From Pocillopora damicornis (taxonomy: Eukaryota): 64,000 nt of DNA. Position numbers and translations under genes: made by a program. Under the pieces are notes generated by a model, which worked only from the letters and a program-made list of their open reading frames with translations, was not told the DNA's origin and made no database searches. Every line of letters begins with the position of its first letter. The stretch's first letter is position 1. The DNA lies in the NCBI RefSeq assembly GCF_003704095.1, contig NW_020847607.1, positions 558,001 through 622,000 on the forward strand. The letters are read 5' to 3'. Positions 13,701 to 36,301 of the stretch are shown piece after piece.

Positions 13701-15398
13701 CCGCTGTACTCACGGACGTCCTGTTTCTGAATTGTTTGCAGTTAACTCCTGTCACTTCTTCGCCATCACTCAATTCTCCACCTGTGTAGGAAGCTTCTGA
13801 AGTTTGCGACTCTTCGTTACTTTTAGCCACTCCAGTTGTTTTTTCAAAATTCCTTGTATCTTCATTTGGTGTGGGTTGCGCATCTTTTATAGTGTAATTC
13901 GCTCCACCCTCCTCTGTACCTCTCTCTGTATCTGTTGTTCTTACGGCTGGAGTGTTCACCACGTGCAAAAATAATCCGCGATTACTTCGAAGAAAGGCTG
14001 GATCGGTCAACTTCTCACTGGAAATCTTTGGCACTTGTAGATCGATAATTAAAAAAAATAGATAAAAAAATGAGGAGAAAGACAATCAAAGAAAGAGAGA
14101 AAAAAAAATGAAAAAGGAAAAAAAAAACAGTTCGTGTCAGAATCGAAGACTAAAGAGTTTCTAGAGCAGACGTTTCGAGCGTAAGCCCTGCGTCAAAGTG
14201 ATGACGAAGGTCTAACCAAATTTTCTTGTAATTCATGGTAACGCCGCATGGCTAATTATAACTTTCTCGCTGTTCAGTAAGACTCCTCCTCCTTCTCTTC
14301 CTCAAAAGCAATTATTACCAAACATACACTCAATATAACACAAATTAAAATATCATATTGACGTGGAGACGGCCTTTGAAATAACCTAATAAAGTTTTGC
14401 GTGAGGTTCCGAAACTGAAAATTAGAACTTCGATGCGGTATCGATCTTTTTTAGAAGTTTTGAGTTTTTCCTGTTATGTTATCGATGACGAAGAACAAAA
14501 CTGGTCAACAACGATGGTGTGTTTCATTTGGTTTTCGTTCTTGTTGATGGCTTTAGATATGTCTGGTAGTCAAATAATATATATCTATAATTCTATGGTA
14601 ATCTTTCTGAAGTAAAAAGTTCATCGGAAAATTTCTATTAACAAATCCCACCGAAACGAAAGGGAACTAGTGAATTAAGGGGGCAAGTTTCCAAAGAAAC
14701 TGTGGTGCTGCGTTGGTAGGAGGTTCTTAAAGATAAAGTGGTTTTATCAAATGGGTCGACAATAACGTAAAGAGTTTCTCTAAAGCTGAAGTTTCAGGCG
14801 TTAGCCCTTCGTCATTCGCTCTAACCTGTATCTCGGTTTCGTGTCCTGTGAAAGGACCTCCTTCATAAAAAATTTGAAGGCAGAAGGTTATATTTCCGTT
14901 TCATTCCTGTCACTATCACAATTGTAAAATTTTAAATTGACCTCTCCGAGGTTAAGATAGATCGAATACAATGATGTTTGACTATATTTTCAGTCCACGT
15001 CATTTAATAGGACATAGTGGAACCAGAAAGATGGAATCCCCTCGTAACTATCTTACCAAGCAATAAAAGTGAAATTTTTTAGATTTCCCAATATAAAATT
15101 TCAGTCATATCATTAATCTTGAATATGGGATTTATAACCTTAAGGTAAGATTTTTATAATACCTGAGTTCTTCGTTGTGGAACAATCCTGTTTGGAAACC
15201 TGGGCGTCCTTCGATCGAACTTCATCGACGATAAATGAAAAGAGAAGTTGTAACAANNNNNNNNNNNNNNNNNNNNNNNNNNNNNNNNNNNNNNNNNNNN
15301 NNNNNNNNNNNNNNNNNNNNNNNNNNNNNNNNNNNNNNNNNNNNNNNNNNNNNNNNAAACAACGCTCCTTTACGAAGTCCATTGCTTTTTCTTGTCAT
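4709..15398 (-). CDS. beta-1,4-N-acetylgalactosaminyltransferase 3/4-like (type II membrane, PA14 domain + glycosyltransferase domain), about 23 exons
   Basis: Exon translations match B4GALNT3/4 motifs in order: VNGHLNLHEWRGWCG (~13525-13619), RIFGYVHPP (~12863-12956), FAISSADGSELWLS (~12105-12207), YYVEVLQKQKYGQDHVEVA-W (~10985-11060), LPLCPYQPSY (~9300-9412), IVNVEAKDDPKKGTRYLLEL (~8156-8237), VKNYGPWI, DPNSIIFTADLH (6200-6274), FWEMMGYGLFGAYKSDW...WGGEDWDLMDR (5276-5402), last exon 4811-4709. First coding exon spans the N gap: MTRKSNGLRKGALF..(gap)..LLQLLFSFIV...KNS|gt at 15163, phase-compatible with the ~14035-13713 exon. The start (15398 or 15382) is uncertain because of the gap. Confidence 0.88.
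5490..5900. repeat. degenerate intronic minisatellite with AAGCGCGGGAAA core
   Basis: Recurring aagcgcgggaaa / aagcgcagaaa / aagcgcaggaaa at roughly 20-25 bp spacing. Confidence 0.65.
11121..11438 (+). mobile_element. tRNA-derived SINE, full length, with 10-bp target-site duplication
   Basis: A-box/B-box-like head (gtggttggtgcacttgactcc...gggttcgagacc), body and ...cagactttacc tail shared with other copies in the window. Flanked by GTTACCGAGG at 11111-11120 and 11439-11448. Confidence 0.85.
12370..12830. repeat. second AAGCGCGGGAAA-core minisatellite
   Basis: Same core and orientation as 5490-5900, in another intron of the same gene. Confidence 0.65.
13318..13503. repeat. local direct duplication of ~75 bp
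   Basis: ttatctYgttttccgaaagtcagtgtttaaaa...ctgatttctcatgctatga occurs at ~13321-13380 and ~13428-13487. Confidence 0.8.
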
Positions 15399-15612
15399 TA
15401 CATTCCAAACGTAAAGCTAGACAAAGAAAACAAAACATCGTAACAAGGGTGGGTGTAAGGGGGAAGCGAATAATTATGCATATGGGCAGGAAAAAATGAA
15501 GCGTCCAAAGACTTTTGCTATGGATTTTTCGTTAACTCCATTTTTTTCTCCTTTCATTGTTCTTCCTTCATCTTTTCTCTTAACTTTTGTTTTGTTTTCT
15601 TTAGAAATCTCT

Positions 15613-18600
15613 TTAGAAATCAAGATCATCATAGGAGATTGCGCCTGAAGCTCGCCTGGACACTGCAAAGATTTCACTCTCTTTCTCTGCCGGCTGGGTG
15701 TCGTAAAAACTTGCAAAGATCTTCGCTTTCCTTTTGGTAACTGGTTTGCGTTTGTTGTCAGCTTTCCATGACTGTTCAGCCCCGGCTCCCGAGTTAGATT
15801 TTTTTGTTGCAAGCCCCTGGTTTTTTCCTTTTTTGCTCTTCTTTCCCTTTTTGCTTTTCTTTTTGCTTTTCTTTGAAGTATTTGCTGCAATCTGTTGCGC
15901 CTCGGCTTTTGCCATCATGGCTAATTCTCTGTCCGAGACAGGAGGAAAAGTGCACGGGATTCTCTTTTGACTGATCTGCCACGGCATAAACAAGTTACAA
16001 TCTATAGCAACGTAGGTAATATCTCCCTCGGTGTAATTCGTTATACTAACAGGCGCCCGCGTTTTGTGAAGATCATACGAAGATTTTACAGACCTTGATT
16101 GCGAATGAACGCTTTTGTACAGACAAGCGTGGATCTCTCCTGCTTTGTGAGACAAAATGTAGTTGGCCTCAGGCAATCTCTTCAACGCTTGGAAAACCTG
16201 AAACACCGTTTTCATTCCCTGCGCCGGATTAAAACCCGTCCCTTGTTGAAGAATATCGTTGATGGAAAGTTCGTCAACTCGCAGCAGTTTTGAATTGTAA
16301 ACATTAATTCTGCCGCAAATGATTCTGGTGTTCTGGCGAATGTAGCTATTTAGCCAAAACCGCCCAGCCTCACTGTGCGACAATTTTTCGTGACCGAAGT
16401 TAGGTTGGTATTCGAGCTTTGGAAGTACACTGTAAAAAGTGTAACACTTTGGTTTATTTTGTTCTTCTCTGTAGGCATCCACACTGCAACGTATCAAGAC
16501 TTTTAACTTTCCGAATCTCCACAGATTATAAACGAAGAATTTTTCATCGTTGTTCTTGCACGTTTCATTTACGTCGAGATTCTGAACTTTGGATTTCGAG
16601 GCACCATCAGACAGTTTTGATTTCTTCGCCTCAGAGCACTGCTTCTCTTCATCAGTAACTCGACGCTTTCGTCTTTCGGAAGTTGTTGCCACGCTGGAAG
16701 GACACTCTTTAATTCCAACATTTTCCTCCGCTCTTTCCACCTCCGTCATTTCAGTGCCACTTACACTGGAGCTTATAGTTCTTTCTCTGTCGCAATCACC
16801 TGTTTTATTTTCTTCGCTGTTTTTATGACACACTAACCTGCGCAAGGCACGCTTGTAAAACTTCACGTTAACATCACGAGGTGTGACCTTCTGTGGAGGA
16901 AAAGGCTTGTCGACAAACACCACTCTGTGAGTACAAATTTTTTCCTGGCCGCCTGTGCGAAAAAAAAAAGAAAAAAAAAGAAAGCAATTGCCATCGTATA
17001 AATAAATTTCGCAGCCTGCCATCAGATGTTACGTGTTCCAAAATTAAAGGGTGCTGTCTCGCATATTTTAAACACAATTCAGTCTATCGAATATGGCGTG
17101 TGGGAAAAACAACAAAGTGTTTACTCCCGATAACAATAACTGCGCACATTTTGTTGCTAATGAAGAAAAGCTTCACGAAATATACGAGTTGCTCCGGGTT
17201 AAGCCTCCAGAACATTTCTTATGTATCTTTCAAGCTCTCCAAACTTTCCACGTTCTTCGTATCTCGACAACGCAAGAACTAATTGTTTTCTGTAATTCGC
17301 AAGTGTTGCAACTCAGTTTTATACAAACCTTCTACTCGTTGAACAGAGACAGGCAGCTGCCACTGCCTGCCATAATCAGGAGGCTGATTATTCAAGAGAG
17401 TGTCCAGTCCACTTGATGAGATCACAATGTCAACTTTGTGCTTCTTGGCCAGACTGACAGCAATTGGGTCCTCACTCACAACCTGTGGGGGAGTGGGTGA
17501 GCAAGTGTACTTGAACAAAAGACTCCACAACATGTGCCATTTGTAAATTAACATCAAAAGCTAATACAGTTGAATTTAAGGAGAGTGCCCCTTTAACAAA
17601 CAGGTGCAAATGTAGGGTTTACAAGACATGACTGGGACCAAAAGTTTGTGTCTACCAATGAAAGGTACGTGCTAGAGTAATTTTCAATTGACTGCTGAAA
17701 GGAAGCAAGGATTACATTGATTGTACTTTGCTTCATTCTGTGATTCTTGCTACCCTGGGTAGGGAAGGGCCCTGTAGAAGTAACGTTTCTGATACCCAAG
17801 AACAAAAAGAACACCACTCTGAACCTCTCCAAATGAACTTCAACCTTTTGACATTGTGGTGCTCACAACTGCCCTCCCTTCCCTTCCCCCCAACCCAGTT
17901 TATAGTCATTCTCTTACTGAATACCTTGAAGGACTTGGCCTTTTCTTGCACTGACTTCTCTTCTGGAACAGTTAGCCCCACCTCCAATAGCATCATGTTT
18001 GTGTCTTCAGGCAAGGAAAGCTTTGGAATATTCCCCTGATTTAGGAAAAACACAAATCTACTCATTACTTGGAAATAGTTTAAGAAGGAGGAGGTTTTAA
18101 GGGGGGGGGGAAATAAACCAACTTCCTTCTTTAAGAGGGCACTACACCTGAGGTCAAAATGCTCTCCCTCGATACTGCCAAATCTCTTATAATCCCCAAA
18201 GGAGGCTAATTTCTTTCAATCATTTTTAACACATTTGATACCTTGCCTTAATGTTGCATTGGTTGATTGGGTGGGTAGGTAGGTAAAGTCTGTACTCAAA
18301 TCATGTGGCTAATCCAGACAGACCTTATCCTGCCTTCCTTAACATGAAGCAACTGGAAGTATTACTACCTCTCCCTGGATAGGATACCAGTCCAGTGCAT
18401 GATTTCACAAGCATTTCATTAAGCTTCCCCAACTATCCACTGGTACCCATTAATTCTCCTAAGTGAAGAGAGGCACAGTAAGAGTCAAGTGTCTTACCCA
18501 AGAACACAACACAATGACCAGGCCAGGTCTCAACCCTGACCTCTCAGCCCAGAGTCCTGTGCACCATGGGTTAGGCCACCATGTCTCCCACAAAATCTGA

Positions 18601-21180
18601 AATTTAAATCTATTACGTCTTGTCTCATACTTACCACTTGCAGTAGTGTTTGCTCAAAAGTGAGAACTGCATCTGATTTGAAAACAGCTCCAACAGATAA
18701 ACCAATGGTTTCATGCAAGGAATAGTAACGCTGCGTAAAAAGAACACAATTACTGGTTAAAACATGATATGTTTCATTCTCCTAAAAAAAATTGTCCTTG
18801 TAGTAAGATCTTCAAAACATCAAAAATTGAGGTAACTTACCTGGCACTTGTAGACCCTTTCTGTCAATCTTCCATCAATATCTACCTGAAGTACCATACA
18901 AACAGCAGGGGGTTATTGCCCATGGAATTATATACTATTAAGAACTATTCACTAGGAAAATTTGTGACCTCAAGTTTCTCTTTTTTTGTAACAAATTGTG
19001 TGATACTGAAACAAAGGTGAAGATTAAAGGGGGTAAGTTTCTACAGAAACTAGGGCAGGTGTTATTACAAGGTAATTTTGATTGGTTCCATCCACTGATT
19101 TTGATAATGTAAATTGGCCACCTTATAGAGTTTCTAAAACTGATATTTTGAGCATTAGTCCTTCATGAGCAAATTATGAAGGGGTAATGCCTGAAAATGC
19201 CAGCTTGAGAATTTCCTTACAGTTGCCAATTTACATTATCAACTTACCAGTATTTTGCAATTTTTCAGGTGCGTGAACACAAATCTGTATCATAATTTTA
19301 CAAATTCTGCTAATTTTTTTGTCATGGTTAATTAATTAACCCTCTCACTCTTAAGATCTCATTAATAATTCTCCCTACTGTCAACCATACAATTCTTATA
19401 ATGTTAGTTCAAAGAATTTGGAATTGAAACAACTAATAATCCCCTAATTGATATTTTTATTTATTTGTATCACTTTTCTACTTGATACTGTATTGATATT
19501 GTAAGGAGAAATTCTGTCTTGGTCACAAATGGGAGCTAAAGGGTTAAATTTCTCCTGTTATTACAGCTTCTTACCTTAAAGTCATCCCACACATCAGGGT
19601 GGACAAAGTTGTACAAGTGATGATTAGCTTTCGCATGGCTATGTACAAACTTTTGATATTCCTCTTGTTCTAGCAACACTGTATTCTTAATATCCTAGCA
19701 TGAAAAGTCCATTGAGGAACAGTGAGAAAGTTTTTTTTCCCACAGTTTACATAAGTAATATTGTTTATAAATGAATGTCACTTTGGATAAAGATTGTGAT
19801 GCTTTGAATACAATGCTCCTCTTTTTAAGGAGGTAGCTATTTGAAAGTCACAATGAAGGGTGAAAGCACTTAGAGTGTGAAGCAGAGTGATGGTCCTTGA
19901 CAAATTTTTATAATTTCAGAACTTCTTTTGCAATAAATATTCCCTGCTTTCCCTTCCCCCTCTAACCCACCAGCAACTACATTCAATGCTGCACTCCAGT
20001 AACAATGATATAAAAAAAAAATCAACATTACATCTCAACATTACATTAGCAGGGGGAGGAATAAGGGGAAGGGATGGTGAACTCAGATACAATGATGTAG
20101 GAAAGCAAATAAGGGTGCCATGACTTTTGCCACTTAACTGTTTAAACCCTAGTATATCAGTATGCAAATTCTCCATACTATACTCTATAAACTTCCCAAG
20201 GTGCTGACAAGGAGAATTTGCTCAACAATAGAAGTTTTAAAGGTTGGTGATCATTTCCTTTATTCTCATGATCTCAAATAATAATTAAGATGTATTGTTG
20301 TTAGGAGAAATTAGATGCTTGTCATCCTTAGAGTTTAAAGGGGCAAACAGTATAAAGTTGGCTGTGTTTGGTAAAATTTACTCCACTGTGACTGCTTTGT
20401 CTCGGTTTTTGCTATTTCAAAGATACATTGTTTTCTTCAAAGTCAGATCACCAAACAAAAAAAAAAAAGTATGCAATAATAACAAGTCGCATGTTTACAA
20501 ACCTGGACTGCTTTCATTTCTTGCAAATCAACTTTAGCCAGCTGACCAGATCTTAACATCTCCAACATCTCCACAAACATCTTCTGACTTTCAAGGCTGA
20601 CTTTTGACAAAACAGGGAATTCCACTGATGGACCCAAAAAAGCCGGGGCACTCTTAGCTCCACCTTTCTGAGCACCTTTGTTTCTGGTTCCTTTCTCAGT
20701 GATTGCAGAATCTTCCTGGATCCTTGAGATGGAGACATCTGCTTTCGTGTCATCGTGATTATATTCAACTTTTTTTTCTTGATCTTTTCCTGATTTTAGA
20801 TGCTTCTCTAGATACTCCACGAACGATGGGCGACAAGAGTATTTCTTGTAGTTTTCTTGAGTGAAAAACACCTCATCTTGCAACTGACGTGTAGGAGACA
20901 ATGATTTCCTAAAATTTTTAACATAAAAATAGACAATTGGTTGTACTTAGAAGCACTACAAGCATATATTCCAAAGTAAATATCTTGTTCATGCCTTACG
21001 TTTATTACACGTTTATTCTTTTAATAAATCCAATTGAACGACATCAAAAACATCTCGCTTAACTTTGAGATAAATTTTTGTCTGACATAAAAGCGCGTCG
21101 AGGTGAGCGATATTTTTCACCCGTTTATGCTGTAAAACTACATAATAGCTTTCCCTATCTTCTTACTGTTTGTTCTCCAT
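15613..21180 (-). CDS. ICE2: little elongation complex subunit 2 (NARG2_C domain), 8 coding exons
   Basis: Exons ~21180-21167, 20908-20503, 19694-19575, 18885-18841, 18730-18635, 18036-17926, 17482-17329, 16952-15613 splice in frame. VFFTQENYKKYS near the N-terminus, W-x-LPV and VFVDKPFP motifs, and C-terminal YNLWRFGKLKVLIRC / LPKLEYQP / YILSHKAGE resemble ICE2/NARG2. Confidence 0.85.
18280..18590 (-). mobile_element. SINE copy
   Basis: Reverse complement of the same family (aaagtctg...catgaagc...ggtacccat...gtgtcttacccaagaacacaacacaatgacc). Confidence 0.75.
19336..19547. mobile_element. MITE copy of the same family
   Basis: ttaaccctctcactc ... gggagctaaagggttaa termini. Confidence 0.78.
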
Positions 21181-21279: not shown

Positions 21280-21570
21280 AGCGATAGACTACGAGAACAG
21301 ACGGAACTTTCCGAAATCGTAAGGAAGCATTCGGAATCAAACGATAGCCTCCGGAATAGAGAAACAGCTTTTAAAATCAGACGAAAGCGTCCGAATTAGG
21401 ACGATAGCTTCCAAAATAAGCCGACAGTGTCCGAAATTGGACGAGAGAGTGCGAAAATGTACGATAGCGTCCGAAATCGCAAGAAAGCGTCTGAAATAGG
21501 CCAGAAGCGTCTGAAGATGGAGGCATCTGACATCCGAAGTTGGACGATAACGTCCGAAACCAGTCCAAAA
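21280..21570. repeat. 21-bp tandem minisatellite (consensus ACGATAGCGTCCGAAATCGGA), about 13 units
   Basis: Visible 21-nt periodicity of acgaNagcgtccgaaat, immediately upstream of ICE2. Confidence 0.85.
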
Positions 21571-24238
21571 AGTTATGACCAAACAGAAAAAGATCTCATT
21601 ATCCTCACATGTTAACCTGCGAGTATATGTAGGCTTTCATGGGCGCTGCTACTCTTGCAACATTCTCGCAAAGTGCACGAGAGTCTAACTGGCCCGCTCA
21701 AAGGGCTACTTTGCTCGCCCGCAGTAGGTCTACGAATTACGAAGAGGACACCTCATACAACTATTGCAGACTTTGCGTGAACCTCGTCAGGTGTTTTTGA
21801 CTGAACAGCGCCAAATAAGGGGGGCTCACATGTCATCCAACTCATATGTCTCCGGATGGTACCAAGAGATTGGATTCCCATTTGATGCCTTTGCGGCTGT
21901 TCTAGGGCGCTGTCTCGAGAAATTCACTTCATTCCACTGTTTAACATCGCGAGTCAGGCGCTGTCGCGTCGACGTTTTCGCCGAGACATCTCTCTTAGTA
22001 GGTAAGTATGTGCTAGTGGCTGATATTAGGCACTAAAAGAATTGACTTAAGATATTTTCCGTTCAACATAGTCATTGATATTTTTAGGAAAGCACAGATG
22101 TGTTGAGCTTCAAATGATACCCGGAAGTTGTATTTTCTTTTCCTTCTTGTCTTGGTCGATAGCGTCAATTTTAGGAGCTAAAACAAGGGTTTTAGTACTG
22201 ATTAGCGAGGGTAAAAGCACGCCAAATGCGCTTGCTTTTGTCCATCGCTTTCGTCGGTGCTTTAGCTCACAATAATCAGTCCTTATCTCGTGTCAGCAAG
22301 GGTATTCACAAAAGCTGAGTACATTACGTATTTTCGCTCCTGAAGTGCCGAGTAACGTGCTGGTTTTACCAACTGTCGTATTTGATGGATGAACAGTTCA
22401 ATACAACTTTCCTTGGTGAACACAAGAAAGGATATTCTCTCTTGTTGAACATTATGACGATTTATCGCTTGTACTCCCGCTTCAAAGAGTGTTGCGTCTC
22501 AATGAAAACAATCGTCTAAGTTAGATGCAATGAATTTGATTGTTAATACAAAACTGCTATTGAAATTCACATAAACCAAAATGATTCTCTTTTTGCTCAA
22601 ATCTGTGCAAATTTATCATTAGAATTAAAAAATCATCGCAAATGGATGTCACAGAATGGAAATATTTTCTGTCGGTAGAATTCATGTTGCTGCTAGAGTT
22701 AAAAATTGTCGTGAGTTTAGCGTAGGACGGAATCTTTGGTGTATATCATTATGTTCTCGCCCTATTCGTCTAGCTATTATAATTGCGTACGTCCAGGCAC
22801 AGCAAAAAATTGTACCTTCAAAGAGATACCCGAATAAACACACAGGAAGCATTGTTAGACAGTCAATAGAAAATTAAATATACGCTTCATTTATGAATAA
22901 TTGCAGCTGAACGTTTAGAAATACAGGGGTAAGCACAAAGTTCTTCCAGCGAACATGAAATTAAAATCACAAAATGGTTCAGTTTACACTATAGTGTAAC
23001 AAAATTTCGTCATGTTGTCCCACGATCTCTGAATGACTAAGGGCTTCCTTGTCACTGATACACACTGACTCTGTGCCCCTGCTGATATAACACTATACTG
23101 ATTGTATTTATAAATAACCCTAGCGTGACACGAGTGACATTTAGCTGTCTAGAGATTTGTTTGGTTCGGTCAATTTTTGCTAAACTTATTTACACGCTAC
23201 CATAACAACATTCATAAAATTATGATGCATAAAAATCAGGGCACAGTGTTTCTGTGTGAATTAGCTAATGAGTTTATTTACTAGCTAGCTAGGGTAATAA
23301 TTATGTCACGTAAGAAATTATTTCGATGAGACATCCACAGTAGCTTACGACCTTAAACAACCACGGCAGCGACGGCAACAAGGAAGTGGAAGAACGACCA
23401 AGATCTAATGAGCAAAACAATAGCTCGGCACTTGTGCTTTTAGGAAAAACTTTGTGCATTTCCTAGCAAATCAGAATAAAAAAGTAAAAGAGTGAACTCA
23501 GGATGAAGTTTCCTTCCAAAACTGTTGAGGAAAAAAAAGTCTTCCACAGGAAGTCGACAAAATAGTACAAAATAGCATCCTATGTATGTATGAAATTCTG
23601 ATGGACACTCCATATTAATTAACTTTTGACTGACTGCGAGCCAAATGTTTCTTCACTTTCACAAGGAATTTCGCGATGCTTTGATGTCTTTATAAAGCCC
23701 AATTCACAGTCGCTTGATATTTGCATGATATTGCGGTAAGCCTCGTTTACAAAGTTCTTTCGCAAACTTGTGCAAGTCTTATGCCGAGATATGTAAACAA
23801 TACCGCTCACTTCGCGTATGGAAAAATAAAAGGGGAAATGTTGCACGTTCATGCCACAAGACAGTCAAGGGTTTCCCAAGATCGCGCACATTTCAAACGA
23901 CTCAAAACGTAGTGTTTCGGCTAAATTTTGAGACTCGCGTTTTGAATGGAAAAATACAATGAAAGAACCTAAGTAAATCTTGGATTTGAATGGATCAGTG
24001 ACTGGGAGAACATGTGATTCAAAACGGAATGAAAGTGAAGAATTCAATTAGAGGACGTATTTCCTAATGGTAGTGAGGTTTTTTTAAACACGAAGTCTTA
24101 ACCGCACAGTAAATCCGTAAATGTAATGAATTCCAAATGCTCCTATCCTTTTTCGAGGTATGAAATTGCCCTTCATTATCATTTTGACTATTTTAAGATT
24201 TATTCATTTAGTTTGTTGTACGATAACTTCTCCTTCAG

Positions 24239-25641
24239 ATGAGTGATATATTCAGATTGCTTCCACGGCCGCCAAGCTCAACGCCAGGCCGACATAGAGC
24301 ATCAGGCAGAAAGTGTAGTGCAGGTTTTGGTGTCAAGTATGAATCAAGCAGAAGGGATCTGGAAGATTATTTTAACCCTAACAGGGAGTGAAGACTTATA
24401 GTGTCTTATTGGAGCTCTTGGCAACGGATTTCTATCTTTGAACCATTCAATCCATGGAGATTGCTTGGACTCCATTCATCTCAGGCTCCCTTTGGAGAAG
24501 TTAAAGCAGCTTTTAAACGTTCTATAACGCAGTCAATTCCTCAGCAGCGTGCCTTGGTATCTTTAGGATATCATATAATCACCTCATCAGGCGAAAGGTA
24601 CAAGCGAGTTCACGGCACGGACGAGTACGTCGTAAGAAGACGGGACCACTTTTTCCTCGCTGCATGTGGCCATGTAGAGGAGCTTTCACGTGTGATCAAT
24701 GGCAAACAGTATCTTTTGGAAGATAAGGACGAGTACGGGAGAACTTTGCTGTACACCGCGAGCAAGTCTGACTTTTACGAAGTATGCAAATTACTCCTTC
24801 AAAAAGGTGCTTCTGTCGATGAACCGCAAAGAGATGGCAGTACTCCCCTTCATGCTGCAGCATACTTCGGCCATGAACGGGTCATCGAACTTCTACTGCA
24901 ATATGGGGCCAGAACAGACATCGTAAACAACTGGGGAAATACTGCCCTTCTCGAAAGCGCCTCAGGCAGAATAACGGGGTTGATTCAATCAGCATCAGTT
25001 GACCAGATTTCATCTCTGGCCGCAGAGCTCAGAACGAAGATGATAGTATTAAACGTGCGAGTCATTGAGCACAAGGGGAAAGTTATCGCAAAGGAATTGA
25101 TTCGTAACGCTTCGGTACTTGACGCACGCACCCGAGCACAGTGGAATCAGATCCACAGAAGTTGGGAAATAGTATGGCACGGTACCCAATATAGGAATTT
25201 GCAGTCTATACTAGAGAGGGGCCTTCTCCCCGCTGGTTCAAGAGGCATCACGCCGGTAAAAGGTCATTTTGAACTCGGCGAAAAGGTCTTCGGTGTCCAG
25301 AACTGGGCAGCTGCAATTTTTGTCTCCCCGAGCATCCTTTACGCATCACATTATTCGCAGAGAGTCTTTTCAGAAGGCCAACTGTGGTGTGTCCTAGTCA
25401 AGGCTTACTGTAGGGAGGAAGTATGAAATCGTACGACCCAACCCTTCTTATATACAGAAGTAAGGACGATGAACCAGAAAAACCAGAATATCGTGTACTT
25501 GTTGATGAAGAGGACAAAAACGTCATTTCGCGCGTTGAATCTGCGCGTAATGTGGTTGTGCATTCTGTGATGTTCGTCCGTGTCAGCTTTCTAAAGGAGC
25601 AAGACCTCAACTTTACGAAAGCCTTGACCCTTTTGCATTAA
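24239..25641 (+). pseudogene. intronless J-domain-like + ankyrin repeats + ADP-ribosyltransferase-like (NEURL4/PARP-like HGT) gene, disrupted in this assembly
   Basis: ATG at 24239 (directly after a ...ccttcag acceptor) is in frame with ORF 24401-25426 except for TGA at 24389-24391. The ORF encodes NPWRLLGL...EVKAAFKR (J-like, no HPD), about 3.5 ankyrin repeats (GRTLLYTA, GSTPLHAAAYFGH, GNTALL) and WHGT..SIL..GL / IFVSPSILYA. The domain continues in the -1 frame ORF 25423-25641 (GSMKSY...PEYRV...VVVHSVMFV). Confidence 0.75.
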
Positions 25642-26254
25642 GGATAAACCGAAAATTTTCTGAAAAATTATGATTTGCCTCAACTGCGTTCCAGGTGTAA
25701 CTTACTGGATCCTCCAAACGATTTATGGTAAAGTTTACAACGGCCATGAGTAAGATTCGACCAAAATATGTACTAGAAAAATGTGACTAGGAAAAAATAT
25801 TAGATGAATGAGTCTCAAAGTAATCTTCACTCAGGGTGTAAGATCCAAACACTCGTCATTATCAGTTTTATTTTTCTTCTGTTTCGCTGTTGAACGTTGT
25901 TTTTACTTTGAAAAGTAGTTATAATCTTTCATCGCTCGTAAAGAATGTGTCGACGCAAAAATATTGAGTAATTTATTCGTTTTAGTATTTAAAGTTAAAC
26001 TTGATCGTTTGCAGTTTTTGAGCGGTAGTTTCTCAGTCTTTGGAGGCAGTGGTTCGATCGTAAATCACAATTCCAGTCGCATCCACTGCAGTCTAAAATA
26101 ACCCAGCAACAAATATAAGTGTTAATTGTTAAGTTCGTTCTTTTTTCTCCAGCATAATTTTTTTAGCTTGTGTTTATATCTTTCTGTTTTAATTTAACCG
26201 CTTGAATGGAGGCAAGCTTATATTTACGTTTTGTCTATAATTTAACACCAGCGT

Positions 26255-26590
26255 GTGAAATCAGACCCTAGTGTCCAAGATCAGACACTAGAGTCTAAAA
26301 TCGGACATCAAGGTCAAAAATAGAACACGAGTGTCTTAGATGGAACATTAATGTCCCAAATCGGACACTAGTATCTAACTTAGCAACAGGCGTCCAAAAT
26401 CAGACTCTAGTGTTTAACATCAGACACTAGTGTCCAAAGTGACCACTCCATTGTCCGATTGTGGACACAGCTATCTGATTTTAGACAGTAGTGTCCGATT
26501 TTCGACACTGAAGTTCGATTTTAAAAACTAGTTTCCGATTTGAGATACTTGTGTCCGATATTAGACTCTAGTGACCTAAATCGGATTCTA
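26255..26590. repeat. 21-bp repeat array with palindromic GGACACTAGTGTCC core and central inversion (foldback-like)
   Basis: Units read aaatcRgacactagtgtcY up to ~26440 and gacactagtgtccgattt afterwards. Confidence 0.8.
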
Positions 26591-27077
26591 TTTCCAATTA
26601 GACTTTTCTGACGATGGAAAGCAAGCAAACAAACAAACAAAGTAACACACACAAACCGGTTTATGACTTCGACCGAAAAAAGATACTGAAAAGAAATTAA
26701 ATGTCTCAAATAAATAACTAAATTAGAGATAATTTCTGGATCATTTTCTTTTTAACTTCTCGATGTCTCAGGAAGAATACACTCCTGACTTGAGATCTTG
26801 TCTCCTCTTCCTATGCAAAGTAGATTATTTTCACGATCGGATAAAACTATCATCTTGATACCTTTCCAGTCGATTACTCCTATGGAAATATTATGAGTTT
26901 TCGAAAGTGAATAACCAAATTAAAGTCGATTTGTTTTCGAATAATGAGTGTGATTTGCCTTGGCTCTCGGCGTTATGAAAATCATTTGTTTAACCTCGTA
27001 AAACTGGAAGACAATAGATCTTCGTTTACTATTTATTTTTTCATTGAAACTCTGGAAAAAGTCAATCTTCTGATCAT

Positions 27078-27929
27078 TCAATACAAGTATAGCATTCCAG
27101 TTTCAACCAGTTCCGTTTCTCTTATTGATCGCTGTCGTTCCTGGTTTTCGTCTGCGAATAATGCTTCCCAAAGACGGCCACTTATTTGTTTCATGAATAC
27201 AAATTGTGCAGATTTTCTGAGTAGGTTTAGAGCTCTCTTAAAATCCTCATGCACAAACGTTGGATCAACTTCTGAAACGTCGAACGCCAACTGGAAAGTA
27301 ACGATAATCAGAAATACAAAATATTGAGCCCAGAAGCTCGCTATTACACACTTGAACAGAATAATGAGGCGAGATTTGCTTGTTATATCGATATTGTCTT
27401 CAACCAACTCCAAGATCTTTATGAAAGATAGCGTGCCTGCTACAATTGTTATTGCAAAGGCGTCTAGAATGTACAAAGCAATTATAGCTTGAGCTGTAGA
27501 TGATAAGTCTGGTACCCAGTAGAGTATAGAGCCAAGACGCACCTCACAAAGAATACAGATAAACGCTAAGAGCCACATTCGAGAAACTTTACATAGCTGT
27601 TTGAAAATCTTCCACATGCCCTTCCATCCTTTTAGCTTTAGAAAAAAAGAGATAAAAATTGCACGGCTGAGAACCTCTGAGCAAGTAAACGACAATTCCA
27701 CAATCATTGCAGTGTTGTGGTTCACGAAGCTACCATTTTCGCAGTTGAAATGAGGACTTCTTGTGTTCTTCCCGCAAGAAAAGGTTTGTAGACAATATAA
27801 AACCAAACCAGGGAAACCGACAAGTTGAAGAAACACAAGAATCGCAAAAGGTACAGTCCGCGGTGTGTAATTTGGCCTCGTTCTTTCAATTAGTCTACTC
27901 TCCTCTGTAACTTTACTGATGCGAAACAT
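27078..27929 (-). CDS. intronless uncharacterised multi-pass membrane protein, 283 aa, 5-6 hydrophobic segments
   Basis: Uninterrupted ATG-to-stop ORF with a caaaATG context. Hydrophobic stretches at about aa 26-47, 75-97, 118-138, 148-172 and 188-216, and a two-Cys loop after the first. No family recognised. Confidence 0.7.
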   Translation of the reverse strand: MFRISKVTEESRLIERTRPNYTPRTVPFAILVFLQLVGFPGLVLYCLQTFSCGKNTRSPHFNCENGSFVNHNTAMIVELSFTCSEVLSRAIFISFFLKLKGWKGMWKIFKQLCKVSRMWLLAFICILCEVRLGSILYWVPDLSSTAQAIIALYILDAFAITIVAGTLSFIKILELVEDNIDITSKSRLIILFKCVIASFWAQYFVFLIIVTFQLAFDVSEVDPTFVHEDFKRALNLLRKSAQFVFMKQISGRLWEALFADENQERQRSIRETELVETGMLYLY

Positions 27930-30042
27930 TTTGAGTTAAGTGTGTACTACTTTAAACAAACCATGCAGAAAAAAAATATTCGTTTCTGGTGAAAACTTTT
28001 AAATTATATTTCGTTTTCAAACTTCGGTTTCCGGTTTGCGTCAGTTTCGAAACTTATTCCCATTGAAAATTCCTACGCGACGCGATTAGGAAGATTTGAC
28101 ACCAATGACTAGCTTGCGCTAGCCGCCATATTGGATGATTTTTGGGCACGAAAACAATCGGGTTCGAATGGGTGACTCAAGGTGGGTTAGTTTCAAAACT
28201 CCACTTCATTCAATTAAATCTACCTCTCAGAATTACCTACAATGATATTTCCACGAGCGACAACCAACAAACGTGACTAGTATAATTTTATCTAAAACTT
28301 TGAAGTCGCGTGAAGGGAGGACATCCTATCGCGTGGGTTAGCCAAAATATCAAGAGCTCATCTTCAGTCACCGATCCGTGAAAAGAGCAGAAAAACACTG
28401 ATTTTTCTGACTTCATATTTTAAATACGAGTGCATCGTAGAATTTAATTTGCGTAAGTTAATTAGATATCCTGTAGGGTGCTTGAGGAGGGCGACTTATT
28501 ACTTTTCTTTCGCTGTCTTTCAATAGACTTTAAGAATCGATGTCGATTGTCGTGATAAAAATCTCTGACGTGTATAGCTCAATTTTCAATTTTCTAAGCA
28601 CAAAGGATTTTGCAACATGATTAATATTCTACCCGGGTTCATGATTGGAAATTGTAGCTGCGTGTCTTCGATATTTGATTCCATGAGAATATGATATATT
28701 TCTAATTACTGTTTTCTGAAAATGTGCCATTTTCGCGACAATCATATGTCGTCGCCAAAAATTCAAAAAAGTTACGAGAGCCTTTTACATATATATTGGA
28801 TTTTTCTAAGTATCCGCTAAAACCAAAAGTTTGAAATGATGGTTTAAAGTCTTCCGGTTAATTTACAATGATTTTGTACAAAATTTATTACATAACACAC
28901 GGAAAAAAATTACGAAATATATTGAACCTATTGACTCTGAGATTGCACTGAACAGCTTCCTTCCGTAGCAGTCGAAATAATTTTGCTATTTTGTTTTATT
29001 TACTCGGTTAACGTGAATACTTAATTGCTATATGACTTCTGCACAAACGATATTAACAGTTGAACGCTAGCTTCTGAAAGTGAATCTTATATTTGTTTAT
29101 TTTATGTGCTAGTTATCAGGAAACCTTGGCCCTTTGCTTGGGTGATCTGATTAGACAAAAGTGCAGATATTCGTCCGAGGTCTTCCTCGATATCACCCGT
29201 TGTTGTTTTGTTACTGTTCCCAGCGCTAGAGTAGGCTTGATGGTTTGATCTGTTTACGATTATCATAAAAGAAACGGCGAATATGAACAGCGCAGATTCC
29301 ATGCTGTCGAAAATTTTTAGAATCCTCCCTTGCCCTTCCTGATTCCAATTTTTTCCATTCAGTGAAAATCCAGTATTTTTTTCGATTCAGTGGAAAATGT
29401 TATGCAAGGTCTGATTTTATCATGATGTTTGGCATGACTGCCTACGGAAAAGAAACCCTGACTGCAAAACCGTTGGAATTATAGGAGAACATCGGTGTCT
29501 CATAAAAAATCCGCAAGGTCGAAGTAATTTCGGGTGATCCCAATGTTCATGGATACTTATGTTATAAAATTTTTTCAAAAGGGTCGCTAAAAAATGTAAG
29601 TGGCTTGAGTGATGAAAGACAACAGTTTCCTGAAATTTGCCTGAGGGAATAACTTGCGTAAGAGAGTGCCTGTCGTCAGAAAATTTATTATAATGTCACT
29701 AACTTTTAAGAGAGAAATATATTATTTCCCAGTTCTCTGCGCGTTTACCACAAGAGCTTTGATCTGACAATCTGCCATCCTTCTAATTTCGAAAACATTT
29801 TCTTTTGATGAACTGGCGTAAAGTCAAACTTTAAGGAACTTTGACCTTGGCTGAGCGTGGTATCGAAATCGCATCACGCCACTACCAGAAGTCACACCCT
29901 TCTATGACGCAACATAAGTGGTGATTAACTTACACGACGGTAGCTAATTTCAACACGGAGTATGTGGATCGCTTTCGAAGGAGTTTTCCCTGTACATAGG
30001 TCGTAATTTTGAGATTGAAGCCATAACATTTGCGGTAAAACG

Positions 30043-33000
30043 ATGAACCGTCTCGCGAATTTTTTTCGTTGTAAGAAGTCGCAAGAAAAAGCTCGTCTAG
30101 CCGTCGGTCAGAAATTTTGCTATGGCGTTGGGCACATTCTGAATGACCTTGCTGCTAACACATGGTTCAGCTATCTTATCATTTACCTGACTAAAGTAGT
30201 TCGACTGTCCAACGGTCATACAGGACTCGTTGTCTTGCTCGGACAAGTTACTGACGGAGTTTGTACACCAATCATCGCAATACTGAACGACAAGACTGTG
30301 TGCCGATATGGACGGAGAAAGATATGGCATATTGTAGGGTCACTCTGTGTCAGTTGTACCTTCCCGCTTTTATTTACACGGCTCATTGGTGATGAAGCCA
30401 ACGACTCGCTAAAGCTTGCCTATTACATCAGCATCGCTGCCTTTTTTCAGTTTGGCTGGGGTTGTGTTCAGATCAGTCATTTATCTTTAATCCCTGAGAT
30501 AGCTATTAGTGAATCCGAAAAAGTCGAGCTGAATGCTATAAGGTAAGCAAGAGGCGCTTGAAATTTTAAGCTTCGCATGGCGCTGAAATTATTTCAGTTT
30601 CGTATTATCTTCGGAGAGCTAAAATGACATGTTTTTTCCATGTTTGTGGAGTTCTTATTTGGCTCACTGTTCAATATTAGCTTATAATATGTACGTATAA
30701 TATATATTTTCACTTCAATGAATTCACCTCCTGCTGTCTTCGTTCGCTACTTTAGCAAGCTTAAGGTTAAGCTATGGTGTTACATGTTCCTTTTTTTGTT
30801 TAATTTTCTGAGCTTTGTTCTCCATCACCTCTATGTTACGTTGCCCTTTGCTCTATCAGTAACAGAGTTTCGAAACTTAGGTTCAAGAAACTTAAAATCT
30901 CTCAGAGAGTAGTGTATTGATTGAGTTGACGATCGAGAGTCCATTGAATTATTGACCATATTTATCAAATTTCGGATCTTGTCGAACAAGGGGTGATGCA
31001 ATCGTAATTTTCCCTACGAATACGCTAATAATTTTGAAGCAAAACATTTTGAAGCAAAACATTTTGTTTCACCGAGGAACTGATTTGTCCCGGAAATTCT
31101 CGCATCTTCCACTTGTCACTCCAGGTTTAGTCAAAGTTCTTCGCCGGAAATCTACTGAAGTTAATCAGTCATATTTTTCGCCGCTCACCCAGCGTGCGGC
31201 ATTTGTTTATATCAGTGTCCAAAAAAAAAAAAAAAAAAAAAAGAAAATACGTGACTCGGAAGTTGCGTTATAATTAGCGTTGTTTTCGGTAGAGTTTCTT
31301 TTCTGTTCAATTGACGCCTTAATATACACGAATCTGGTCTAAAAAGGACTCGGATCGTATCTTGCCGCGATGATTCGGTTTGTTGTTTCATTGTTAGCCG
31401 CTCAGTTGACTGCCACGCGAACGAAGTCTCCAATTTTTTCGAATGAAACTATAGTATTCTGTCAATAATCACAAGTTCAAGATTTTTCTTGCGTTTCAAA
31501 CCCGTTGAAACTACAAAAAATGAATTCGCGTGTGAAATCATTGAAATATTGAAACAGTAGTTCATTGATGTACGTGATCGATTAAAACATCTGCTAATTT
31601 ACATACCGCTGGATTATAATTTATCAGGTTAATCTTATTAGTTTATCCCTCCCCTCCCTGTGTTCTTATAGGGGGGTCAAAGTGCGAAGGTCGGCTTCTT
31701 TAAAAACGCCATAAAAATAATAAAATGTGAGTTAGCACAGTTTTCATTTTAATTGAAAATTCTCGCGAATTGCCCTCGCTTCAATTTTTTCTTTTTTAAC
31801 AGATCGGCTCTACGATTTATTTGCGGAATTTTTGTGTTTTGCGTGACATGGGTTCTATTAGGAAGAAGCTCAGAGGCAAGTATTTCGCCTTCTATGTGGC
31901 AGCAGTTTATGGTAAGTTGCTTGTTTGCATATTTCTTTGGCAGGCTTTTTCGAGGATGTGACATAATGCTTGCACAATACTTTCCTTTTGAGTTGCTGTC
32001 GCGTGACATCTGAAAGAACGGCTACGGCATGTCACGCAATGTACTTCCGCTTATTTTGCAAGTCAGCTGTTATTTCTGATGTTTTCTTTAACAAATTTGC
32101 GCGGGAATTTGCAGCGCGGCCGGCCAGAACTGATTCCCTTGCGCATGCCTGACATTTATCATTGTGTTTCGCCGGGACAATGTCAGCGAAAACTGAAGGA
32201 GTGGTGGAACGTTACCGGCGTTTGATTAAAATCCCATCCTGGGAGATAAGTAACGTATTTTCTCAATCATGATACTAAAGCTGGAATAAATTTCTTCGAG
32301 ACTTGAACCTTTTCATAACTTTCTTCTCAGTATCTTGGTTTTATTATCGTCGCAACTGGCACTGTGTGTAACGTTGTGTTCCATGTTGGAATCAAAGAGC
32401 CTCCTTCTGATGCTTTACTGAAGTGGTTGGAGGAACGTAAAAGTGGAAATCACAAGTTCAAGCGGAGAGGAACCGAAAAAAGAGGTAATTTAGCAACAGT
32501 AGAAGCGTTAATGCCTAGATGACATTAACATGTAACTTCTTTTGTCAATTTAAGTACATAATCCAGCAAACAGGTGATACGAATTGACAAACTGATCAGT
32601 CAGAGGGAACAATCTTCGTATAAGACCAACTTCCCTTTAAAAATTTATCAGCAAAATTTTAGAGGTTTAGAGTGTAAAGCACTGAGATCTATGGGAAGGG
32701 AAATGCAAGTTACAATTGAGCGGTTAAACATCAGAAAGTGCAGACAGAACCTAATAAATCGAACGTATGGTAACACGGCAAGATTCCATATCATGCGAAA
32801 ATAGTAAGAGACTTTTGCCTCCTGTGGTCGATGGTCCTATCGATATTTTCTTCATGGATGAAAATAAATCAGCCCAATAAACTGATGAATAAAGTGCCAA
32901 GAGTTTCTTTCCACAACTTTTAGTGTACTAGAACAAAATCGCCGATCCAGAGAATATATTACACTCGAAAACTGTACGTTAAGAAATTGAAAGACTGAAA

Positions 33001-36000
33001 AGGTGCATGCAATCGTCCAAATATAATCCTCCGTCACTTTTAGGTTCCAAATGGGTTTAAACCAAACTTGTCACAAGCCTGACGTAACGGTTAACTTCGG
33101 CTTCGTCGGAGTGAATGTTTGGTTATAGAAACCACTCAAATAAAACGTTTTTGAAGTCCAGTGATGCAGCTTTGCATGGATTTGAAACTTTAATAACAAA
33201 GCAACCTATGACCCAATGTGCAGACTCGTTGTGTCTCACCCCTTGCGACAGTCAGAGCATTCCCCTCTTTCTGGTCACGTACGGAAAGTCCAAACTTTTC
33301 CTTTGTACACAGGTCTTTTGGCTCGGGCCGTGTATCCGCCGCCATCTCCAAGCAGAAGAAGTGGAGCTTCGCCTGCTGTGGTGATGACACTGTGCGAAAA
33401 AGAGAAGAAGAGAACGGCAGATCCTAACGAAAGGACAGACTGTCCAGCATGCCTGGAAGACGGGGAAGCACGGAAATCCTCTATGGATATTACCGATAAA
33501 ACAGCTATTCCTGGCGGAGGAAAGAGCAAACGACAGTGGATGACATGCCCTGGAATGTATAAAGTGAGTGTTGCCGCAAGAACTTCAGTGAGGTCCCGTT
33601 CTTGCCCATACTGAATTTTATGGGTAACATGTTGTATGTTTACTCTCATTACAGACTGGCTTGGTGTACATTTGTACGCGTTTGTACGTGAATGTTTCAC
33701 AGTCATATTTGCCACTTTATTTGACGGAGACAATGCGATTCGAGAAGGTAAGCCATTGTCTTAACAAATGTTTAATATTTGTATCATTTTATCTGCAGTG
33801 CAATCCTCCATGATGATCTTACCTCCTCAATCACGCATGGACAACAAATTTTATTACCTCTTTAAACGTGCTAATAAAATTATGTTTTTGTTTGGAATGC
33901 TTATCATAGTTTGGGAATTGCACGGAGAAGTTATTTAGAAAATGCGGAGAAAAAGTCAGAGAAGCCTTATTTTCTGTAGACTAGCTGGGTCTCCAGATCA
34001 GGATGTAATTTACAGCCGCCTTAAGCATTTGGTTTTGTCAGAGGAAAATGGATATGAATAACTTTCACCCTCGAGCAATTCGCCGGTTTCCGAATTCAAA
34101 CCCGAGCAACTTTAGTGTAGAGCTCTGTCACTATTATTATTAACTATAATATTCTTTGCAGGAATCTATTGCTTATTTTCCTTTGGTTGTGCTGGTGACG
34201 GGAGTTTTGGCAAGTACAGCTGTCAAACCACTCAATAAACGCCTTGGAAGCAAGGTTGGTTATACTGTAAACTCTTTTTAGCAGCTTTTAGTAGAACAAA
34301 ATCAGTCAAATTTGTTGGATACGGGAAGCCCTAAATCTCCTTTCCTCGAAATATACAGTAAAGGAGAATTGAAACAATTTATTCGTGCAGAAAAAGGGTA
34401 AGCTCTCTGGAAACATAAACGAATTTTGTTGCATCGTTGGCCTGTCCGTTTGTTGGTAAAAAATTCTTTTTTCGACTTTAGAGGTGCACTGTGGGAAGAC
34501 AGCACCTTGCTCACACCTTTCGAGCCAGAATTTAGTACGCACCCTGCCATTGTATCTCTCATCTACTTTCATACACGCAGCGAACCTTTTTTTTTTCTTT
34601 TTTTTTTTAATTAATGGATCCTTCTTCTAACGGAGCTAGTACTCTTCATCATCCACAGATCACATTTTGTCTGGGTGCCATGATGGCCGTCAGTGCTAGC
34701 TTCTGGTTCTTTGTTCAAACAATTGACGCACGGACTGCCGTGTATGCGACCTCCATGCTTATGGGTAGCGGTGGTTCTGTCATGCTTGTGACGTCATTTT
34801 CCTTAATCGCGCAGCTCATTGGCCACGACAAGGTAAACAACAGACGTGATATTACATAGCAGCTATAGGGAGAAGAACGTGTAGTTTGTGCAGTTTGACA
34901 GCGTATCTTTTTTTAAATTGATGATTGCTTTTTTTTGTTGTAGAGATCCGGAGCTTTTGTGTACGGTTTTATTGGTTTCTTTGATAAAGTTTTCAGTGGA
35001 GCGATATTCGCCATTATTCAGCAACTAAATCCTCGTAAAGATCAAGGGTAAGCCGAGTTTTAGTTGATTCCCCCCGTGTAGCGGCTTTCATCTCCTTGGT
35101 ATTGATCTCCATGCTGCTTTCCGCGTTGAAAATTTCTAAGACCAACTTAAAATTTTTCTTAAGTTGCTAAAACGTAAACAGCGGACGCCGCCATATTGGA
35201 AAGGTCACAGTAACCTGGCCTTTTCTCGCGTTCCACAAGCTGCGTTGCTCTAGTTATTGCAATTGATGTTTTTGTAACGTCTTAAATCTGTTAAAGAAAG
35301 AAGTATATGGCAAGCGCAAGGAGGATTGATATTTGTATATGACGTCTCACGGTAGCTTTCCTTTTGTAGAGTTGAATGCTCCAAGTGCGATGAATACACG
35401 CGTCACGTGCAAAGCATAGTACCAGGCACGGTTGCTGTTCTGGGACTTGTGTCAGTAATGGTGTTCTTTGAGTCGATTTTCGTGTGCAAGAAAAGAGGTG
35501 AGGAAAAGTTATTTTGAAGTCGGATCCCTATTTTTTCTGTTTAAAAAATTCACCCGAAGAACGTAAAAATCTTGGGAGTTAAAGACAGTTTTAGCCAAAA
35601 ACATTAAGATAATGAGCGAATTTGATAACATTTAGGCAGTATATCGATTCTATGAGAGGAACTAATCCAATTTTGAGAAATTTATTGTGTTTTCTGTTGG
35701 CCAAAGTGAACAGGGTTTTGAATAAACGATGGTTTTTTTTTCACTTAATTTTCTTCGTTATTAACTTGCCCCCTTCTTCCCTTTACCCTTACTTACCACC
35801 TACTCCTTCTTGTCTTCTAATCCCAATTTAGACTTTTTCAATGTGAGTCCCCTTGTTATAATAAGCGATTTAATTATCATCACCAGTCTCATTAGAGTAA
35901 ACTTTATAGTTGTGCCCTCCACGCCCTTTGTTTTCCGTGCCCTATTCTTTCCTATTTGGCCGTCGACTTTTCATGATACACATTATAATGCTATTTTGTT

Positions 36001-36301
36001 CATTCTAGCGTCGACAACAGACGCCGCAGTCCAAGTTGATTTAGATGAAATCCTGGGCGACGGTGACAGCAGCTCAAGTGGTGTGGATACATCCTCTATG
36101 ACAGAGAAGGCTGACAGCGAAGTTTGCCACATCGGCAGTGCAGAAAAGGGAGCATGCGCAACGCAAAGCAGACCTTTTGATTGCTCCATAGAATCGCGGA
36201 ACTTTCATCCGAAGAAAACAACAAAGCAGAATTATGTCGCCATACGACTGGCGTCTGTATCGCTACCTTCTCCCGTGTTAGATCGAAGAACGATTATATA
36301 G
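30043..36301 (+). CDS. MFSD12: MFSD12-like major facilitator transporter, paralog A, 10 exons
   Basis: Exons 30043-30542, 31803-31911, 32331-32484, 33313-33563, 33655-33747, 34162-34254, 34659-34832, 34944-35047, 35370-35497, 36009-36301 splice in frame. Motifs YGVGHILNDL..WFSYL, YGRRKIWH, FQFGWGCVQISHLSLIPE, TRLYVNVSQSYLPLYL, SGAFVYG..FFDK are characteristic of MFSD12. Confidence 0.92.

Follow-up and report, generated by a model that had tools for sequence, protein, structure and literature searches.

We analysed a 64,000-nucleotide window of the Pocillopora damicornis genome (contig NW_020847607.1, positions 558,001 to 622,000 of the forward strand). At positions 21917 to 26300 of the window lies a copy of a gene that encodes a J-like segment, ankyrin repeats and an ADP-ribosyltransferase (ART)-like domain. 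The best explanation overall, which we consider very likely, is that this locus is a spliced, transcribed, broken copy of a coral J-like/ankyrin/ART gene that has intact relatives elsewhere.

Gene layout and breaks

The features of the locus, in window positions, are as follows.

21917 to 22001, + strand: 5' untranslated exon from an RNA contig; its start is a lower bound set by the contig's 83 unaligned letters
22002 to 24238, + strand: intron of 2,237 bases with a GTAAGT donor, a pyrimidine tract and a CAG acceptor immediately 5' of the ATG, from one RNA contig
24239 to 24388, + strand: codons 1-50, a low-complexity N-terminus predicted to be disordered, 94% identical to the intact orthologue P0062
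24389 to 24391, + strand: premature stop TGA at codon 51 (break 1), present in 4/4 sequencing runs
24392 to 24592, + strand: beta-hairpin and shortened J-like domain, HPD absent (orthologue residues 52-118)
24638 to 24997, + strand: about three ankyrin repeats and a capping helix (residues 134-253)
25163 to 25411, + strand: first part of the ART-like domain, with His314 (25178), Phe361 (25319) and Tyr368 (25340)
Within that first part, + strand: two-codon gap between His371 and Tyr374 (25352)
25412 to 25426, + strand: frameshift (break 2), after which the first frame closes at the TGA at 25424-25426; present in 4/4 runs
25414 to 25641, + strand: what remains of the ART-like domain, read in the shifted frame; it holds the predicted catalytic Glu419 (25486) and ends in the gene's original stop
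25642 to 26300, + strand: 3' untranslated region, on the same RNA contig to at least the end of the compared stretch, with no A-tract

The window copy thus consists of three pieces: codons 1-50, an open stretch up to 25423, and the final 75 codons in another frame, which end at 25641 and contain the PEYRV motif. Alignment with the intact paralogue maps the one-base change of frame to 25412-25423. A sequence-only reading had described this region as an intron-free, single-frame gene for an HPD-less J-like, ankyrin and ART-like protein. The order of modules stands, and the motifs it quoted (HGT, FVSPS-x-x-YA, PEYR and others) were all found where it had placed them. The single reading frame is contradicted by the TGA and the one-base shift, which split the copy. 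The gene is also not intronless, because a GT..AG intron lies in the 5' untranslated region and only the coding part is a single exon. Nor is an intron-free frame a local oddity, as the neighbouring genes hold open stretches of 285, 409 and 471 codons.

The splice joint is known from one RNA contig, which aligns from 24237 onward and carries 83 unaligned letters ahead of that point. Thirty of these letters are identical to 21970-21999; 100 shuffles gave 0 chance matches. The genome has GTAAGT at 22002 and a pyrimidine tract and CAG directly before the ATG, and two in-frame stop codons lie in the 5' exon just ahead of the joint. Because such a joint is impossible from library DNA, the pseudogene is transcribed. 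Upstream, on the reverse strand, window positions 13693-20946 hold an ICE2/NARG2-like gene (PF10505, E 8e-44, at 15616-17028), whose upstream exons likely continue in the direction of 21000, placing it head to head with the pseudogene's 5' exon. A promoter shared with this gene could explain the continued transcription.

The breaks might be assembly errors or belong to a rare null allele, in which case the species would have a working gene here. The sequencing data bear directly on this point. Of 24 listed runs, 20 contain this stretch, and 4 from 4 studies were examined: one RNA run, whose sample is flagged as a possible source of this DNA, and three unflagged runs that are DNA or unlabelled. 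Contigs from 4/4 of these runs bridge both breaks without a gap or an altered letter there, although contigs drop rare variants and can hide minor alleles. The same shifted tail closes five database proteins from other assemblies (P0106, P0298, P0300, P0301 and P0304), one of which is seen on 13 contigs. The copy also carries accompanying damage. Compared with the intact orthologue P0062 (469 aa, from a cluster of 88), it has 19 differences over 465 aligned residues and a two-residue gap between His371 and Tyr374, and Asp (24770) stands in place of Gly178, a Gly that is invariant in 66/66 aligned family members. Close orthologues (96-97%) are intact, and P0303 shares the two-residue gap and the Asp yet has no frameshift, so this break varies among close relatives and is likely the later event. 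Taken together, a working gene at this locus is very unlikely.

The window copy combines genuine frame-breaking changes with the existence of an intact homologue. The first Met after the premature stop corresponds to orthologue residue 268, and a product starting there would lack Glu419 and all 7 conserved columns behind the frameshift. It is highly likely that the locus is disabled; both breaks speak against the working effector that had been proposed for it. It is an ordinary transcribed, unprocessed pseudogene, a dead duplicate that likely makes no active enzyme and would yield RNA and at most short peptides.

Relatives, inheritance and loss of copies

The Pocillopora genome has a single paralogue. 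It lies on contig C497, its open frame spans 719 codons, and it is 57% identical over 380 residues. Its protein is identical to Pocillopora damicornis pdam_00017037 and retains all 67 conserved columns of the family alignment, which comprises 66 members and is the basis of the conserved-residue counts given here. Intact 469-aa orthologues of the window copy, such as P0062, exist as well. A homologue search returned 244 proteins at E up to 0.001, 120 of them listed; the named genera among the matches listed are Stylophora, Desmophyllum, Oculina, Orbicella and Paramuricea. More distant named members come from Porites, the rotifer Rotaria and the diatom Trieres, and most other members are unnamed. 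The family thus occurs in corals, both stony and soft, and has members in a rotifer and a diatom. The J-like and ART-like blocks occur together in 209/388 collected proteins, and three Atlas clusters (410-447 aa) match at 0.99. A partial Porites lobata record, P0167, has a tandem pair of J-like/ankyrin units, and the record contains no ART domain. Databases label the proteins of the family as uncharacterised, ankyrin protein or TRPA1-like, since their ART domain scores below the Pfam cut-off.

A tree was built from 82 rows (the 66 alignment members, 15 added proteins and the middle piece of the window copy), with long N-termini trimmed. All 9 named coral rows fall on one branch (support 100/97). 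Within it, the window copy clusters with Oculina and Desmophyllum proteins (100/99) and the paralogue with Stylophora and a second Desmophyllum protein (95/83); the deep branches are long and uncertain. These groupings point to an old duplication and apparently vertical inheritance within corals. In the orthologue group (four clusters), 13/42 listed proteins are full length, and the breaks lie at differing sites, near residues 151, 310, 323, 328, 394 and 429 and upstream of 246. In the paralogue cluster, 13/15 listed proteins are 707-710 aa long and one further protein keeps all domains. The lists are uneven samples (15 of 88, 15 of 122, 9 of 9 and 3 of 3 for the orthologue group; 15 of 205 for the paralogue), their records lack independence, and a truncation may in some cases reflect a contig end or an error; we therefore treat the contrast as a pattern rather than a statistic. 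It is consistent with an old duplication within stony corals that would have given two lineages, one of which, that of the window copy, probably evolved faster and is being lost in Pocillopora by several different mutations while the paralogue is kept.

The sequence-only reading had also suggested that the gene arrived by retroposition or horizontal transfer. The single coding exon, the patchy distribution of the family and an endoparasite-effector origin proposed for NEURL4-like ARTs (PMC3417536) fit such an arrival. However, a retrocopy would lack introns, carry an A-tail and have an intron-bearing parent. No A-tract follows the stop of the window copy, the 5' intron is present, and the sole paralogue is also a single coding exon with the same acceptor-like sequence directly before its ATG, as read from the genome sequence. 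Retroposition is unlikely on these grounds. Recent transfer is opposed by the single coral branch, which includes an octocoral, and by the foreign matches themselves: 77/77 matching loci in prokaryotic genomes and 1/1 in viral contigs cover the ankyrin region only, although the ART motif was among the scan patterns, and the ART profile matches none of the 77 prokaryotic loci or the viral one. We therefore regard retroposition or recent transfer as highly improbable; an ancient transfer into or among eukaryotes may have occurred.

Several other features surround the locus. Directly downstream, on the reverse strand, a 285-codon open stretch (27081-27935) encodes several hydrophobic segments and has no Pfam match; its predicted product is an unexplained membrane protein. 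Degenerate 20-bp tandem arrays, a common dispersed repeat of this genome, lie at 21300-21580 and 26230-26600, the second with inverted halves. Further along, at least three MFS_2 transporter genes stand in tandem over 30019-45600 on the forward strand (first exons at 30019, 38089 and 39899), and a long exon at 61170-62396 on the reverse strand encodes a cyclic-nucleotide-binding domain protein (PF00027). An assembly gap lies at about 44300-44600, and the window contains 284 N.

Domains and predicted activity of intact members

The J-domain likeness noted in the sequence-only reading is confirmed: the J-like segment shares homology with helices I-II of genuine J domains. HHalign gives 96.3% (E 1.6e-9, 26 columns), and the scores of 10/11 coral J domains lie between 16 and 28 bits, whereas the best shuffle reaches 7.9; the Pfam DnaJ model gives weak matches in 5/66 members. 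The HPD motif between helices II and III is present in 0/66 members. Family members therefore resemble J-domain co-chaperones and HPD-less J-like proteins in helices I-II but differ from J-domain proteins in that all 66 lack the HPD loop with about 10 flanking residues and in that their J-like part is fused to ankyrins and an ART domain. The ankyrin repeats, about three, lie above Pfam cut-offs (Ank_4 E 6e-19).

The PARP/diphtheria-toxin-like fold suggested for the C-terminal domain is supported by structure prediction. In the model (predicted local distance difference test, 87; predicted template modelling score, 0.84), His (of HG[ST]), Phe and Glu each lie on a strand and follow one another as in ARTDs. 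Foldseek matches of the isolated domain are weak to moderate (best E 2.8e-3), and 35/35 rows listed are PARP catalytic domains at probabilities of 0.87-1.00. Atlas features match PARP-labelled clusters at 0.94 and 0.91. The Pfam model PF00644 matches 55/66 members weakly (best E 8.8e-5), and the scores of 18 (window copy), 16 and 12 bits stay under its curated cut-off of 26.7 bits. Across the family, the columns of HGT, FVSPS-x-x-YA and PEYR are conserved; among the 66 members, His is conserved in 66, Phe in 65, Tyr368 in 64, Tyr374 in 65 and the late Glu in 62. In the window copy this Glu follows the frameshift and would be missing from any product. The H-Y-E triad of the sequence-only reading holds for His and Glu, but the strand-2 Tyr is replaced by Phe in 65/66 members by motif register, giving H-F-E, and two conserved Tyr lie further on. 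This Phe stands at the register of PARP 'YFA' and NEURL4 'LLS' (PMC7955679), a register set by motifs rather than residue-level superposition.

Intact members are thus predicted to carry a PARP-fold ADP-ribosyltransferase domain, and by analogy they are probably active enzymes that use nicotinamide adenine dinucleotide (NAD+). ARTD enzymology would make them cytosolic mono-ADP-ribosyltransferases that place one ADP-ribose onto a protein target. His314 and aromatic residues would bind NAD+, and Glu419 would support transfer. The J-like/ankyrin block, for which rigid packing against the catalytic domain is predicted, may select the protein target or gate activity; its J-like part has no HPD and would therefore leave Hsp70 unstimulated. 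N-myristoylation is predicted to anchor the paralogue to a membrane.

Intact proteins could instead modify nucleic acid or merely hydrolyse NAD+, like KptA/Tpt1 or DarT. Ankyrin and J-like modules are usually protein binders, which counts against this activity. Faint Tpt1/KptA matches (13/66 members at E up to 0.1) and matches to DarT1 and Tpt1 chains at E 0.8-2 agree with it, as does the reported DNA dependence of NEURL4 activity (PMC8932523). However, the Tpt1/KptA/DarT1 matches are confined to the shared first motif, and the fold matches are PARPs. We consider this alternative unlikely.

An immune or conflict role for the family can be offered only tentatively. The immune or stress role suggested by the sequence-only reading would fit the turnover of copies. 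The family could consist of innate-immune or conflict effectors that expanded by lineage and evolve by birth and death; the loss of the window copy would then belong to this turnover and may be selected. Several paralogues per coral genome, the many differing truncations in the orthologue group and the long branches leading to it, and the family's scattered occurrence in corals, a rotifer and a diatom are consistent with this possibility, and the ART-bearing AACRNL family, of similar spread, acts on immune signalling (PMC12957317). In this genome, however, just two copies are present, the paralogue is intact at all 67 conserved columns, and no mobile-element context was found around the window locus. 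We hold this alternative to be possible without favouring it; as it is compatible with a broken copy of a coral J-like/ankyrin/ART gene, it would add a role to that explanation. Rather doubtful is a wider proposal, in which the intact relatives form an undescribed, widespread eukaryotic ART class. Here, a loop-stripped J domain and three ankyrins would act as one rigid enzyme-switching sensor, for example for a chaperone-bound or pathogen protein, with birth-and-death turnover in corals and parallel loss of the window paralogue by different mutations across Pocillopora lineages.

If active, these proteins would widen the ADP-ribosylation repertoire by a J-like/ankyrin ART family present in corals, rotifers and some protists. 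The intact paralogue is a ready test object for the family. Within Pocillopora, intact orthologues occur alongside broken ones, which provides a natural set of knockouts for phenotypes of stress or disease. The window locus, itself an ordinary dead duplicate, is valuable as a pointer to the family.

Comparison with known systems

No description of a J-like/ankyrin/ART protein was found in the excerpted literature (including PMC8003356 and PMC3482391), a coverage that excludes the surveys of de Souza and Aravind 2012 and Aravind et al. 2015. The family is neither tankyrase nor NEURL4, as the sequence-only reading had concluded: members have 2-3 Pfam ankyrin stretches, no SAM occurs among the 23 families matched by the 66 members, none of these has NHR repeats, and a separate multi-NHR NEURL4 gene lies on contig C590.

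The NEURL4 C-terminal ART-like domain (PMC8932523) is, like that of the family, a compact ART domain with collinear motifs: a first-strand HG[ST], a hydrophobic-x-S-P strand, V-x-P-G-x-Y and a late Glu. NEURL4 has an H-L-E triad with HGS, LLS and ELE (PMC7955679), and its HGS and ELEW motifs are reported to be required for activity (PMC8932523). The family differs in having J-like and ankyrin modules instead of NHR repeats. On the family ART profile, the predicted C-terminus of coral NEURL4 scores 10.4 bits (0/2,000 shuffles as high), and coral PARP exons reach up to 14.6 bits on the first motif alone. Behind the first motif, NEURL4 is the top of 459 targets at only 6.5 bits, with 1/2,000 shuffles higher. 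An affinity with NEURL4, which the sequence-only reading had drawn from motif spacing, is plausible but unproven by these scores, and so is a closer tie to its ART domain than to PARPs. Coral NEURL4 (C590; L028:1701-1816) has Tyr-Gly-Thr in place of the human His-Gly-Ser and may be catalytically altered.

PARP/ARTD enzymes, including tankyrases and the ankyrin-bearing clade 1 PARPs (PMC4245714), share with the family the ARTD fold, HGT and a conserved Glu, and the ankyrin-bearing PARPs also have ankyrins N-terminal to the catalytic domain. The combination of ankyrin and PARP arose several times (PMC4245714). Unlike PARPs, the family stays under the PF00644 cut-off, has, by motif register, Phe for the strand-2 Tyr and carries an extra J-like module; unlike tankyrases and PARPs, it has about three ankyrins and no SAM, WGR or regulatory domain. 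Elsewhere in the genome, a dense cluster of PARP-domain exons (C1462:436000-580000) suggests a local PARP expansion.

The AACRN/AACRNL Crinkler-like mono-ARTs (PMC12957317) have in common with the family HGT, a diphtheria-toxin-like domain, frequent decay of copies and a patchy spread that includes Cnidaria and Rotifera. Their excerpted description mentions neither ankyrin nor DnaJ, and the two groups are compared here by description. No hAT-type ends were seen at the window locus. The AACRN/AACRNL N-terminus is a ubiquitin-like domain (PMC12957317), whereas the N-terminal modules of the family are J-like and ankyrin. The J-like/ankyrin/ART family is apparently an ARTD variant not described before, and the genome keeps an intact copy of it outside this locus.
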